Source: a virus | Taxonomy: Duplodnaviria; Heunggongvirae; Uroviricota; Caudoviricetes | Strand: one strand, 5' to 3' | Virus record (IMG/VR): IMGVR_UViG_2706794671_000011 | DNA: 3,977 bases | Shown here: piece by piece, positions 1,018 to 3,695 of the stretch | How the letters are laid out: every line of letters begins with the position of its first letter | How positions within the stretch are numbered: position 1 is the first letter of the stretch | The notes under the pieces: model-generated | Database searches by the model: none | Told to the model about the DNA's origin: nothing | The model's input: the letters and a program-made list of their open reading frames with translations, nothing else | Program-made: the position numbers and the translations under genes

Positions 1018-2126
1018 TGAACCTTTTTTCGTCCACTGGCGGAACGTTTCGCCGCTGTGTTCACGGATTTTTCAGCACCACCAGCAAGGATATAAGTAAA
1101 ATCGCTGCTGCTGTGGGTGAATGCCGCGTTTACTATCTGCGAGCGTGTGCTGTAGCTGCCTGTGCTTATGCCGCGATGGGTTAATGATGCCTGTGCCATA
1201 TCGAAAAGGCTCATCATGGCGTAAGGGTTGCCGCGTTCTGCCTGTTCATGTCCCAGACGCGCATTAAGCCCCTGACGCATTGCATCGCCGGTTATGTTGC
1301 CGTTATCCGTGTACGCGTAGTAAAGATTTGCGGGGGTGGTTTTGTTTGTCGGTGTCGATTCTTTACCCATAGTGAGTAAAAGGCGTTCGCGTGCATCCTC
1401 AACGCTACAGCCTGAATCAGCAAGACAACTTATAGCCAGGTCGTTATATCTTCCATTGAACGTGCCAAACAATTCACGTATCCCGTTGAGTCGTTCCTGT
1501 TCTCCGCTGCCAGTTTTCTGGCTGATCATGCTTTTAATATTTTCCGGCATATTCGAAAAATCTCCGATTCGTTTTGATTCAATTCTGGCCATTGCTGTAA
1601 TCGCGGGTATAACCTCATCTGCGAAGCCATTAGCCTTACACTCATTGCCATCCATCCAGGTTTCCGCCTCCATCATGGCGGTGATTTCCTGTTTGCTCCT
1701 GCCCGTTCTTCCGGCGTAGGTTTCCGCCATCGTGTCGCCCAGCTTGTCCATCAGGTCAGCAAAGCGGCGAACGTCGCCCGACACTCCGGCAGTAACACCA
1801 CGGGGGGCATGTATCATCATCATCGCGTTTTCAGGCATAACGATGTGATCGCCACACATGGCAATAAACGAGGCCATAGAAGCCGCCATGCCTTCAATGT
1901 GTACAATTTTCTTTGCCGGATGATTTTTCAGGGCGTTATAGATAGCCAGCCCTTCAAAGATGTCGCCACCAGGTGAATGGATGCGAAGATGGATTTCAGG
2001 CACATTACCGCACGCGTTGATCTCGTCAGTAAGTGCCGATGCTTTTACACCGTACCCGCCGATCTCGTCATAAATGCGTACATGTACAACATCAGCCATA
2101 GCCTTAATGGAAAACCATGTTTTCAT
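981..2126 (-). CDS. ClpP/S14-family prohead (head maturation) serine protease with ~190-aa C-terminal scaffold-like or capsid-N-terminal extension
   Basis: 381-aa ORF with ATG at 2124-2126 and a strong SD (AGGAG, 7-nt spacer). The N-terminal half has the ClpP-like core, including HSPGGDIFEGLAIYNAL and GMAASMASFIAMCGDHIVMPENAMMMIHAPRG, which resembles the ClpP active-site serine region (CMGQAASMGAFLL...VMIHQPLGG). The start overlaps the stop of the upstream small ORF as ATGA (2123-2126). Confidence 0.85.
   Translation of the reverse strand: MKTWFSIKAMADVVHVRIYDEIGGYGVKASALTDEINACGNVPEIHLRIHSPGGDIFEGLAIYNALKNHPAKKIVHIEGMAASMASFIAMCGDHIVMPENAMMMIHAPRGVTAGVSGDVRRFADLMDKLGDTMAETYAGRTGRSKQEITAMMEAETWMDGNECKANGFADEVIPAITAMARIESKRIGDFSNMPENIKSMISQKTGSGEQERLNGIRELFGTFNGRYNDLAISCLADSGCSVEDARERLLLTMGKESTPTNKTTPANLYYAYTDNGNITGDAMRQGLNARLGHEQAERGNPYAMMSLFDMAQASLTHRGISTGSYSTRSQIVNAAFTHSSSDFTYILAGGAEKSVNTAAKRSASGRKKVHCQTSMRHVVLA
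1023..1029 (-). other. A_AAA_AAG slippery heptamer in phase with the protease frame; candidate -1 programmed ribosomal frameshift site or indel-prone A6 homopolymer
   Basis: Minus-strand protease codons are CGA AAA AAG GTT (plus 1023-1031), so the heptamer is in X_XXY_YYZ phase. A -1 slip then reads GGT TCA TTG TCA AAC = G S L S N, which is exactly the capsid ORF frame. Confidence 0.35.
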
Positions 2127-2317
2127 AGCCAGGCTCCTAACGTTGCCCTGTACCAGTATTCAACCGCGCTTCTCGCAATCTGCCCTTTCGTGGGTACTGG
2201 CATTCCAGGGTGATGACTTTTAATGAACTGCTGATAGCGTTCGAGCTTCTCCATAGTTCCGGCGTCTATGTGCACTGTTGCACTTTTATCCGGTTTTCTG
2301 CTGTTGTTCTCTGGCAT
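2123..2317 (-). CDS. Small hypothetical protein (64 aa from ATG at 2315-2317; 75 aa if the upstream ATG at 2348-2350 is used), first gene of the head operon
   Basis: Minus-strand ORF. GGAGG (plus 2325-2329 as CCTCC) sits 7 nt upstream of the internal ATG, whereas the first ATG at 2350 has no SD. The stop overlaps the protease start (ATGA), implying translational coupling. No recognisable family by eye. Confidence 0.5.
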   Translation of the reverse strand: MPENNSRKPDKSATVHIDAGTMEKLERYQQFIKSHHPGMPVPTKGQIARSAVEYWYRATLGAWL

Positions 2318-2348
2318 AAGTCTGCCTCCGTTATGATTAACGGGCATC

Positions 2349-2420
2349 ATTATTGATCGATAAAACTGGTAAATAAATCATTTTCTATCTAAAAATCAGA
2401 TTATGTGTTTTCTGATTTTT
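2349..2420 (-). promoter_or_regulatory. Candidate activator-dependent promoter for the head operon: -10-like AATAAT (minus, plus coords 2349-2354), no convincing -35, with a perfect inverted repeat centred about 60 bp upstream
   Basis: On the minus strand AATAAT matches TATAAT 5/6. The -35 position (TTTATT) is poor. The perfect dyad AAAAATCAGA-N10-TCTGATTTTT (2391-2420) lies where class I / late-gene activators typically bind. Confidence 0.25.
2391..2420. repeat. Perfect 10-bp inverted repeat AAAAATCAGA / TCTGATTTTT with 10-nt spacer
   Basis: Read directly: 2391-2400 aaaaatcaga, 2411-2420 tctgattttt (exact reverse complement). It sits in the intergenic region between the SSB and head operons. 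The stem is AT-rich, so it is more likely a protein-binding operator than a strong terminator. Confidence 0.6.
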
Positions 2421-2438
2421 GTCATACCAGCAAAAGAA

Positions 2439-2467
2439 TTGACTAATTATTGCCAAGCCAGCACAAT
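2439..2467 (+). promoter_or_regulatory. Weak sigma70-like promoter candidate on the plus strand (TTGACT -17 bp- CACAAT)
   Basis: -35 TTGACT (2439-2444) matches 5/6, the spacer is 17 bp, and the -10 CACAAT (2462-2467) matches 4/6 with the conserved A2 and T6 present. It would initiate near 2474, about 40 nt upstream of the terminator hairpin. Confidence 0.25.
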
Positions 2468-2511
2468 TAAGACTCATCATTTCGGTAGTGGCAGTATCCT
2501 TTGTCGCTGAC

Positions 2512-2549
2512 AAAGCGCCTCCGGTGGCACCATCGGGGCGCTTTTTTTT
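2512..2549 (+). terminator. Intrinsic-terminator-like hairpin: AAAGCGCC stem, 17-nt loop, GGCGCTTT stem, followed by a T8 run (plus orientation); A-tract/stem/short U-tract in minus orientation
   Basis: 2512-2519 aaagcgcc pairs with 2537-2544 ggcgcttt, with Ts through 2549. A short 7-bp inverted repeat CTTTGTC-gct-GACAAAG (2499-2515) sits immediately upstream. Confidence 0.5.
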
Positions 2550-2559
2550 GCGCCTGTTT

Positions 2560-2831
2560 NNNNNNNNNNNNNNNNNNNNNNNNNNNNNNNNNNNNNNNNN
2601 NNNNNNNNNNNNNNNNNNNNNNNNNNNNNNNNNNNNNNNNNNNNNNNNNNNNNNNNNNNNNNNNNNNNNNNNNNNNNNNNNNNNNNNNNNNNNNNNNNNN
2701 NNNNNNNNNNNNNNNNNNNNNNNNNNNNNNNNNNNNNNNNNNNNNNNNNNNNNNNNNNNNNNNNNNNNNNNNNNNNNNNNNNNNNNNNNNNNNNNNNNNN
2801 NNNNNNNNNNNNNNNNNNNNNNNNNNNNNNN
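2560..2831. other. N-masked block (272 nt) covering the C-terminal part of the SSB-like gene and adjacent sequence
   Basis: Run of n characters; no sequence information available. Confidence 1.
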
Positions 2832-3392: not shown

Positions 3393-3592
3393 AGGCTTTA
3401 CCTCACAGCAATAAAATAAAATTTTTGCATTTTAACCCTTCACCTGTTCACCTTTTGCAATTTTCCCTTTTTATTCATGATGTTAATGGGTTAACAGTTT
3501 CACAAAAACTATTCACCAACTGTTCACCACTGTTCACCCTTAAAGCTCAATAAAGAATCAAAAAGGTGAACAGTGAATAGTTTGGTGAACAG

Positions 3593-3619
3593 TTCATAAA
3601 TAACTGTTCACCCTATAAT
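3593..3619 (+). promoter_or_regulatory. Sigma70-like promoter candidate embedded in the origin (TTCATA -15 bp- TATAAT) with an iteron in the spacer
   Basis: Perfect -10 TATAAT at 3614-3619. Weak -35 TTCATA at 3593-3598 with a short 15-bp spacer. Iteron TGTTCACC (3605-3612) lies between them, so initiator binding would occlude it. It points antisense to the 93-aa ORF. Confidence 0.3.
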
Positions 3620-3643
3620 ATACTGATATAAAAGACATTTATT
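3613..3643. other. AT-rich core flanked by iterons; candidate DNA unwinding element of the origin
   Basis: cctataatatactgatataaaagacatttattg is markedly AT-rich and bracketed by the forward iteron at 3605 and the reverse iterons at 3648/3658. Confidence 0.35.
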
Positions 3644-3695
3644 GCAGGGTGAACAGTGGTGAACAGTTATTCCATAAGTTTAATTTTTTCCATCG

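Follow-up and report, generated by a model that had tools for sequence, protein, structure and literature searches.

The window analysed here, a 3,977-nucleotide stretch of viral DNA (IMG/VR record IMGVR_UViG_2706794671_000011), carries credible genes on the minus strand only: the C-terminal part of a primase, an 81-aa ORF, SSB, a 64-aa ORF and a ClpP-protease/major-capsid fusion, with iterons at 3430-3680. The homologues L001 and L002 were annotated as int, an HTH regulator, BRO-N, an Icd-like gene, primase, SSB, a small ORF and the ClpP/capsid fusion, and the gene order of the island is the Integration-Bro-Replication-Late layout reported for Gram-negative PICIs and helper-embedded PICIs (PMC10111431, PMC6092414). 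Membership of this family was defined by an integrase, an AlpA-type regulator, a Bro zone, a primase with its ori, a helper-like cos and a late zone with captured phage genes, and on this gene content the host element is a Gram-negative PICI-type phage satellite. The island of L001 is itself embedded within a prophage terminase gene, in the same orientation as that gene.

Between the capsid operon and ssb lies the subject of this report, a short unit with a promoter-like site and a terminator hairpin that both face the plus strand (Table 1). Part of the DNA to its right is masked in the window. Since the IMG/VR contig L043 is 99.95-100% identical to the window and has 330 nt in place of the 272 masked ones, the stretch could be read nonetheless. 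From left to right come a second T-run, a lambda-like cos region, the minus-strand ssb terminator (AGCCGGAGCAATCCGGC-T6) and the stop and 3' end of ssb. The cos region matches those of the lambdoid phages 1720a-02 (between Rz and terS) and mEp460 (at the genome end), and the putative cosN on the minus strand is ACG/GGGCGGGCGGTT/CGCGGAAAAAGGCG, to be set beside the lambda cosN, which we take to be ACG/GGGCGGCGACCT/CGCGGGTTTTCGC. In L043 and in the E. coli homologues, ssb ends some 180-235 nt to the right of the unit, beyond cos. The first-pass annotation had placed the candidate RNA opposite the 3' part of the ssb operon, as an antisense transcript, a placement that has to be given up: the ssb terminator and cos intervene, and the RNA would therefore overlap neither ssb nor its 3' end. 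By its position, the unit at 2439-2549 diverges from the capsid (late) operon and stands back-to-back with the promoter region of that operon.

Table 1. Features at and around the plus-strand unit, in window coordinates.
Feature	Position	Strand	Basis or remark
64-aa ORF, PHROG 4934 (function unknown)	2123-2317	-	First late-operon gene; ClpP-protease/major-capsid fusion gene next
Late (capsid) operon promoter-proximal region and 5' UTR	2318-2390	-	Sequence and scan
Palindrome AAAAATCAGA-N10-TCTGATTTTT	2391-2420		Sequence; between plus-strand promoter-like site and capsid-operon promoter region
-35-like hexamer TTGACT	2439-2444	+	Consensus scan and direct reading of the sequence
-10-like hexamer CACAAT	2462-2467	+	Consensus scan; 17-nt spacer to -35
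5' segment with pairing potential to helper gene U mRNA, codons ~108-117	2471-2499	+	Ungapped pairing count
Predicted transcript, ~76-78 nt	2472-2549	+	Inferred from sequence, scan and fold
Stem-loop 1, AGUGGCAG / UUGUCGCU, 8 bp, 6-nt loop	2487-2508	+	Single-sequence folds
Intrinsic terminator	2512-2549	+	AAA 2512-2514, GC-rich hairpin 2515-2541, T8 2542-2549; scan and folding
GCGCC repeat, then second T-run entering the masked stretch	2550-2559	+	Read from L043
Masked stretch	2560-2831		Contents read from contigs identical on both flanks

The palindrome between the two divergent promoter regions is kept in all type A sequences, the type to which the window belongs, and was not found in the helper-like phages compared; it is a candidate for an operator shared by both promoters. 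On the capsid side, the block CATTATTGATCGATAAAA of the late-operon promoter region is common to all allele types, and in the 5' UTR of the operon a hairpin (2327-2344) overlaps the Shine-Dalgarno sequence GGAGG (2325-2329). In the left-hand island of L043, the same slot holds a plus-strand ORF of 180 aa with a HEPN domain, divergent from the capsid operon of that island, so plus-strand transcription out of this region would be normal for these islands. The middle of PICIs, next to and downstream of pri, is reported as an accessory and immune region that includes the Tai tail-assembly inhibitors (PMC11364771). Taken together with the HEPN gene, this means that the unit, judged by its context, occupies a mid-island accessory (cargo) slot between cos and the capsid operon.

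The promoter-like site TTGACT-17-CACAAT, its spacing within the 16-18 nt looked for in a sigma-70 promoter, scores 9/12 consensus positions in the window, with a -10-like hexamer that by itself is a weak match (3-4/6 across haplotypes), and in the commonest haplotype, A2, the score is 8/12, below the scan threshold. Promoter-like matches of such quality show no enrichment and stand at chance level (3 found vs 4.8 expected in shuffles); the promoter match taken alone is no evidence, and its activity is a prediction. The hairpin at 2515-2541 with its T8 is the top terminator-like match in the window, so that the scan and the ORF list bear out the first-pass observation that the best terminator faces the plus strand and the credible genes the minus strand. 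Its stem of 11-12 bp is made of a 5' arm (2515-2526) and a 3' arm (2531-2541) around the loop GCAC (2527-2530), the core has a free energy of -18.6 kcal/mol on the plus strand, and U8 follows the GC-rich stem-loop directly, as befits an intrinsic terminator for that strand. The AAA in front of the stem is able to pair with the first three U of the U-run, which would lengthen the stem. Directly behind, GGCGC-T8-GCGCC forms a second small hairpin with T8 as its loop (-11.5 kcal/mol), and this hairpin with the second T-run, the counterpart of which in L001 is 6407-6425 together with GTTTTTTGTA, is a possible back-up terminator for the plus strand.

The promoter-plus-terminator unit for an RNA of ~75 nt that had been proposed at first pass is thus present, and counting from the -10-like hexamer to the end of the T-run gives 76-78 nt. 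The RNA would start 5-8 nt past the -10-like hexamer and end within the T8 run, and the predicted transcript contains no AUG-initiated ORF. The stretch 2468-2549 folds at -32.3 kcal/mol, against a shuffle mean of -19.2 (z = -4.5), and 0/200 shuffles were as good. With a tail of U6-U9 and a partly conserved 5' end of which ~12 nt are unpaired, the predicted RNA has the build of an Hfq-type trans-acting sRNA.

Which strand the hairpin serves can be asked of the stem itself. Where the stem is imperfect, at two pairs, the plus strand has G-U and the minus strand A-C, so the hairpin is weaker on the minus strand (-14.5 vs -18.6 kcal/mol). The minus-strand tail is UUUGUC in haplotype A1, UUUUAC in A2 and UUUAGU in A3; that is, 3-4 U, below the scan rule of >=5 T in 8. 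The T8, the second hairpin with its T-run, the stem asymmetry and the short minus-strand U-tail favour a unit built for the plus strand, and a partial minus-strand stop by the same hairpin is plausible. The sister allele B carries at this slot a terminator of its own for the minus strand, a copy of the ssb type. Allele B' lacks the cos-bearing stretch of type A, and there the ssb terminator borders directly on the late-promoter region. Judging from these two alleles, a stop for minus-strand transcription immediately before the late promoter would seem to be something that the islands need in common.

It is possible, if on the unlikely side, that such a need accounts for everything seen here, and that the hairpin is a terminator and nothing else: a two-way insulator between the replication/cos and late modules that blocks minus-strand read-through from ssb as well as stray plus-strand antisense transcription, with hexamers that are fortuitous or very weak and no functional RNA. 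The terminators of alleles B and B' are in line with this, as is the chance frequency of promoter-like matches, and the stem does lie between an A-tract and a U-tract whichever strand is read (plus, AAA...T8; minus, A8...UUU(G/U/A)). Bidirectional intrinsic terminators are built in this way, with a GC hairpin between an A-tract and a U-tract that stops transcription from both sides, but the candidate hairpin is asymmetric (T8 vs 3-4 U) and no convergent gene ends on its plus side. An insulator would also have a minus-strand tail that fails the scan criteria and a stem that is ~4 kcal/mol weaker on that strand, and it would stand where ssb already has its own strong terminator. Without plus-strand transcription, the T8 and the second T-run would be purposeless on the plus strand, and the conservation and low polymorphism of TTGAC, of the spacer length and of the 5' body, set out below, tell against it as well.

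For the comparison between islands, 48 copies were gathered by anchoring on sequence outside the unit. They comprise 14 distinct sequences in three haplotypes: A1 (the window and four IMG/VR contigs), A2 (the commonest, with 42 sequences) and A3 (the contig L003, also found in two complete genomes), which differ from one another by 20-25% in the unit region. TTGAC is invariant in all 14 distinct sequences (the sixth base is T or G), whereas the six bases upstream vary. The 17-nt spacer is free of indels in every haplotype, and the -10-like hexamer, which elsewhere is CAATAT or CAGTAT, is invariant at positions 1, 2, 5 and 6 (CAnnAT). Downstream, the three haplotypes have in common the 5' sequence CUC(A/G)U(U)CAU, UUUGUCG, the stem, T6-T9, and the GCGCC repeat with another T-run, and the length of the RNA is constant at 76-77 nt in A1, A2 and A3 despite internal indels. 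Differences in the hairpin between haplotypes are confined to the loop, plus one G missing from the G-run; a single C-A stem mismatch occurs in one minor variant. In the fold of each haplotype, ~12 nt at the 5' end are left unpaired, a stem-loop follows in the middle, and the terminator comes last; A1 and A2 form different 8-bp middle stems onto the same conserved UUUGUCG 3' arm, and A3 a weaker stem. In the covariation analysis that the first-pass annotation had proposed, the RNAalifold consensus consists of the terminator hairpin without stem-loop 1, and the covariation term is +0.33, which amounts to no signal, with one pair double-changed, in a set of only three haplotypes that gives covariation almost no statistical power.

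Polymorphism within A2 was measured over 41 copies. The fraction of variable sites is 0.048 in the RNA body and 0.062 in the terminator, as compared to 0.115 in the adjacent coding ORF and 0.15-0.25 in the late-promoter region, and no stretch of the locus varies less than the transcribed part, with 4/74 variable sites vs 45/330 in the left, capsid-side flank (Fisher p = 0.03). E. coli homologues (75-86% identity) were found in 144-149 of 5426 complete genomes and are always chromosomal; the unit was found in E. coli-type islands only. The 89-nt hairpin block occurs in 144 genomes, solely inside this cassette and never in another context, and the cassette was not found in any phage searched. 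Conservation of promoter and hairpin in related elements, which the first reading had made a condition of its proposal, is borne out for each related island that bears this allele, over three haplotypes, 48 sequences and 144 E. coli genomes. No new haplotype came out of a metagenome scan, which added 4 loci, out of further viral scans or out of an E. coli search based on A3, and a contig scan with an 18-mer anchor gave chance matches in unrelated taxa only. No variant was found where the same promoter drives a gene. Carriers of the cassette include O157:H7 3-5-1, O157:H7 clade 8 strains, O145:H28 RM13514, 2012C-4221 and O121:H19, and enterobacterial PICIs in general are widespread in Shiga-toxin-producing E. 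coli.

Protein-coding readings of the same DNA were considered on both strands. A minus-strand small protein across the promoter region, of 31-33 codons from an AUG at ~2482 to the UAG at 2385, or alternatively of 86 aa from an upstream UUG in L043, is hardly credible in either form: the frame is open in all three haplotypes, but A1 and A2 differ by 14 non-synonymous vs 2 synonymous changes in 31 codons (counted by eye), no usable Shine-Dalgarno sequence is present, and the conserved C-terminal part coincides with the palindrome. A plus-strand ORF of 35 aa (2403-2510) was rejected, as it has only 18 codons in the E. coli homologues, lacks a Shine-Dalgarno sequence and shows mostly non-synonymous differences.

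Catalogues of known RNAs were also consulted. At the Rfam gathering score, no family, C4 and IsrK included, matched the window, L001, L007 or L043; with the island being of PICI type, the analogy to the immunity RNAs of P4 that had been drawn at first pass did not hold. With E up to 10, the window and L001 gave terminator look-alikes only, plus false miRNA matches on the iterons, and the best match over the unit was ctRNA_p42d (19.7-23 bits vs a threshold of 50), which covers the terminator only. Compared by short blastn with 50,697 phage records, the RNA body gave chance matches only. The candidate locus is absent from the sRNA catalogue of EHEC Sakai (Table S2, PMC4104026), a catalogue that cannot speak to the unit because no type A island was found in six Sakai chromosome stretches (~260 kb). 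The positions of EcOnc10/11/12 (HnrS) lie in lambdoid late regions and not at the unit locus. Sp7 of Sakai, a capsid-forming PICI, has nothing but the ssb-type terminator in common with the island.

Partners for the predicted RNA were sought by complementarity. Within the satellite, where the first-pass annotation had suggested looking, and in the Sakai prophages, a search for exact complements of 9-mer seeds gave none that the haplotypes have in common. A pairing between the RNA 5' end and the region where the small late ORF starts was discarded, at only 6-7 bp and lost in A2. In addition, the 5' 23 nt of each haplotype were scanned against phage 1720a-02, which has the cos of the island. There was one outlier, for A2, at -32.6 kcal/mol, when the best of five shuffled queries gave -23.6 to -28.1, and the site is on the sense strand of a gpU-like tail terminator gene. 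The same 17-nt site is present in the prophage in which the island of L001 is embedded, and in 64/77 gpU loci from IMG/VR.

Against the major gpU allele, the A1 segment 2471-2499 forms 26/29 ungapped pairs, of which 19 are Watson-Crick and 7 G-U, with 16 contiguous; A2 has 17 contiguous pairs with both gpU alleles, and A3 pairs poorly (10 contiguous plus a 1-nt bulge, with a score that is not significant). In statistics selected only after the match had been seen, the 26/29 pairs of A1 were reached by 0/500 shuffles and the 17-bp run of A2 by 1/500, and in 2.75 Mb of satellite and phage DNA gpU is the sole non-self site with >=26/29 pairs for A1 and the sole non-self run of >=16 for A2. All five differences between A1 and A2 in nt 1-17 are transitions that exchange a Watson-Crick pair and a G-U pair against the same target base, and since they lie opposite a target G or U the pairing is kept. 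In the real orientation, the pairing is 5-12 kcal/mol better than in the mirror orientation; a start of the RNA at 2474 would cost three of the gpU pairs. At the identity level the 17-mer is marginal (blastn-short E-value 0.51 in a 240-kb database), and in local alignment to gpU alone the score was reached by 208/2000 shuffles for A1, 16/2000 for A2 and 352/2000 for A3, so that at the DNA level the unit shows weak homology to gpU or none of significance. An anti-gpU function of the predicted RNA is a lead with marginal statistics, and we regard it as doubtful. Equally doubtful is its fuller form, in which the accessory-slot cassette would express a 77-nt antisense RNA that pairs with gene U and lowers the tail-gene expression of the helper or of a competing lambdoid phage. 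Silencing gene U would bring the satellite no obvious gain, because the satellite needs helper tails.

The resemblance to gpU could instead be read as history. The unit may be a relic, either the decayed cassette of an accessory gene, of which promoter, leader and terminator are left, or a captured fragment of gpU, or both, with no present function. The slot is a cargo hotspot with a plus-strand HEPN gene in the sister island, PICIs of this kind are reported to capture helper late genes, sometimes with their order rearranged (PMC10111431), and the gpU-like stretch at the unit, ~35-60 nt long, is oriented like the late genes. A relic is nevertheless unlikely, in that the transcribed part is less polymorphic than the adjacent coding ORF, architecture and length are the same in three divergent haplotypes, and the search for a variant with the same promoter in front of a gene came up empty. 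Against a captured fragment, too, the identity to gpU is weak, and the RNA-level pairing with G-U is better than identity predicts.

A regulatory RNA could also act on the island itself. Lambda OOP and P22 sar, phage RNAs of ~70-77 nt, each have a promoter of their own, end at a strong intrinsic terminator and run counter to the operon around them; they overlap, and act on, a convergent mRNA of their own genome. The candidate is like them in size, in its promoter-terminator build and in an orientation contrary to all genes of the window, and an RNA in the style of OOP and sar would pair perfectly with minus-strand read-through past the ssb terminator and cos, and by cleavage or termination of that read-through keep the late operon silent until induction. 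Discrete, strongly diverged and internally conserved alleles are typical of antisense systems, and hairpin and RNA together could form a minus-strand attenuator. However, the candidate overlaps no gene or known transcript: the unit is intergenic, the one minus-strand ORF across it is not coding-like, no minus-strand promoter or gene overlaps it, and the late promoter region seems to follow it in the minus-strand direction. With two terminators already between ssb and the unit, and with the preservation in A1 and A2 of pairing to an external site left unexplained, we consider such a cis-antisense role quite improbable.

The reading that we prefer is that of a plausible new satellite sRNA. That a real transcript is made appears to us about an even bet, and we put slightly short of even the combined reading in which a discrete ~77-nt RNA exists and the two modules are insulated by the hairpin as well; all the readings weighed here overlap in part. 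The plus-strand unit would then be self-contained cargo in the PICI accessory slot, between cos and the capsid operon, with a moderate sigma-70-type promoter (TTGACN-17-CAnnAT) firing away from the capsid operon. RNA polymerase would halt ~77 nt on, at the strong hairpin with U8, and the second U-run would serve as backup. The product would begin with a conserved single-stranded stretch, carry a stem-loop in its middle and end in the terminator hairpin and a long U-tail, the usual build of an Hfq-type sRNA, from which binding to Hfq is predicted. With 3-4 U on the other strand, the same hairpin may double as a partial minus-strand stop, and the cos and replication module would, we propose, thereby be insulated from the late module. 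The alternative named at first pass, a bidirectional terminator that insulates the two operons, is thus a live one and in part compatible with the sRNA reading. The best candidate target for regulation is the mRNA of the helper gene U (tail terminator), which would be paired by the first 17-29 nt of the RNA.

Proteins are the known means by which PICI-family satellites manipulate their helpers. To our knowledge, SviR of the unrelated Vibrio PLE stands alone among satellite sRNAs in having a demonstrated action on a helper, tail-assembly interference by satellites has so far been protein-based only, and we know of no PICI sRNA weapon that has been described. If true, a gene U antisense RNA would be an RNA form of tail-assembly interference and the first such weapon, and with a conserved RNA unit that is capped by a terminator, control by RNA would reach the very common enterobacterial PICIs. 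An RNA that is both made and directed at the tail terminator gene would offer a simple, testable case of sequence-programmed interference between satellite and helper. If the hairpin is an insulator only, it still marks the boundary between the cos/replication and late modules, and shows how these islands keep cos transcription-free.

Several known systems of phages and satellites invite comparison. RNAs of the P4 CI type (Rfam C4, IsrK) have been reported in the Bro zone of some PICIs (PMC10111431) and are, like the candidate, regulatory RNAs encoded by a satellite. P4 CI is processed from a leader transcript, belongs to the Bro zone and terminates via seqA/seqC pairing, whereas the candidate is at the cos/late boundary, has its own predicted promoter and matches neither C4 nor IsrK. 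The sRNAs AgvB, AsxR, HnrS and StxS of EHEC prophages, Hfq-associated RNAs of 51-74 nt that were horizontally acquired and have intrinsic terminators (PMC4104026, PMC13502914, PMC7547250), resemble the candidate as mobile-element cargo in the same STEC strains. They differ in being located in lambdoid prophage late regions and in having core-genome sRNA or mRNA targets, and none of them maps to a PICI. The Tai systems, cargo of the PICI accessory region downstream of pri (PMC11364771), are protein inhibitors of tail assembly, while the candidate would act as an antisense RNA on the tail terminator gene, with no homology to them. The nearest functional precedent is SviR of the PLE of Vibrio cholerae, a trans-acting satellite sRNA that pairs with helper transcripts and lowers the translation of a putative structural protein (bioRxiv 10.1101/2022.04.08.487710). 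PLE is not a PICI and has another host and another helper, no sequence relation is to be expected, and SviR is experimentally shown where the candidate RNA is predicted; the role of SviR is nonetheless the very role proposed for the candidate in the gpU lead.

A palindrome lies between the divergent promoter regions of the late operon and the plus-strand unit, which consists of a promoter-like site and a terminator hairpin predicted to yield a small RNA. This palindrome is kept in all islands that carry the unit (type A), is different in the sister type B islands and was not found in the helper-like phages searched, and it is a candidate operator for both the late operon and the plus-strand unit. 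On the late-operon side, a second element, a hairpin that overlaps a Shine-Dalgarno sequence, may regulate translation of the first gene in the late operon (see the table below).

Coordinates of features in the window and in homologous loci (L numbers)
Feature	Window	Other loci	Strand	Remark
ClpP-protease/major-capsid fusion gene	34-2126	L043 6227-8094	minus	two overlapping ORFs
Hairpin TCCGTTATGATTAACGGG	2327-2344			overlaps Shine-Dalgarno GGAGG of minus-strand 64-aa ORF
31-33 codon ORF	2385-2482		minus	open in all three haplotypes
Palindrome AAAAATCAGA-N10-TCTGATTTTT	2391-2420			between divergent promoter regions
Lambda-like cos site	2560-2831 (masked)	L043 8528-8857; L001 6454-6621		between ssb and terminator hairpin
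Iteron array, GGTGAACAG-type	3430-3680		both orientations	
Tandem PICI-like unit		L043 2890-3560		second unit, same contig
Prophage context of the island, O157:H7 strain 3-5-1		L001 1-3203 and L119		island lies inside lambdoid-prophage terminase gene
Sister alleles		L007 1575-1591; L053, L077, L099, L104		divergent at slot

The slot, the accessory position between the cos site and the capsid operon, differs in content among the sister alleles. In type B, the minus-strand terminator of the ssb type occurs there as a duplicate, along with an unrelated cassette of ~300 nt; in type B' the late-promoter region is joined directly to the ssb terminator, without the intervening stretch that bears cos in type A. 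Two A/B hybrids (L068 and L078) have their breakpoint within the shared block CATTATTGATCGATAAAA. The equivalent slot of the second unit on L043, the contig nearly or fully identical to the window, carries a plus-strand, AT-rich ORF of 180 aa in which Pfam detects a HEPN domain (E = 1e-4). PADLOC gave no match for this ORF, which is probably defence or toxin cargo.

Opposite the promoter-like site of the plus-strand unit, the 31-33 codon ORF differs between haplotypes A1 and A2 by 14 non-synonymous and 2 synonymous changes, and its N-terminal part is a stretch weakly like gpU, the helper tail terminator (EMMS vs EFMMW). Gene U of the prophage that embeds the O157:H7 3-5-1 island bears the predicted pairing site of the candidate RNA, ~10 kb downstream in the same late operon.

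The capsid fusion gene, a single intact gene of 629 aa in E. coli homologues, is broken in the window into overlapping ORFs (981-2126 and 34-1017) and is split likewise in L043, which would make it either a frameshifted pseudogene or a case of programmed shift.

The GGTGAACAG-type iterons, which together form a long imperfect palindrome and give rise to spurious Rfam matches to plant and animal miRNA, are presumably the replication origin of the island. At the cos site, the window may have a 58-nt deletion relative to L043, since the L043 stretch is 330 nt long versus 272 nt masked in the window. Compared with lambdoid phages (1720a-02, CP-1639, mEp460 and Stx phages), the site shows 73-91% identity to their cos region.
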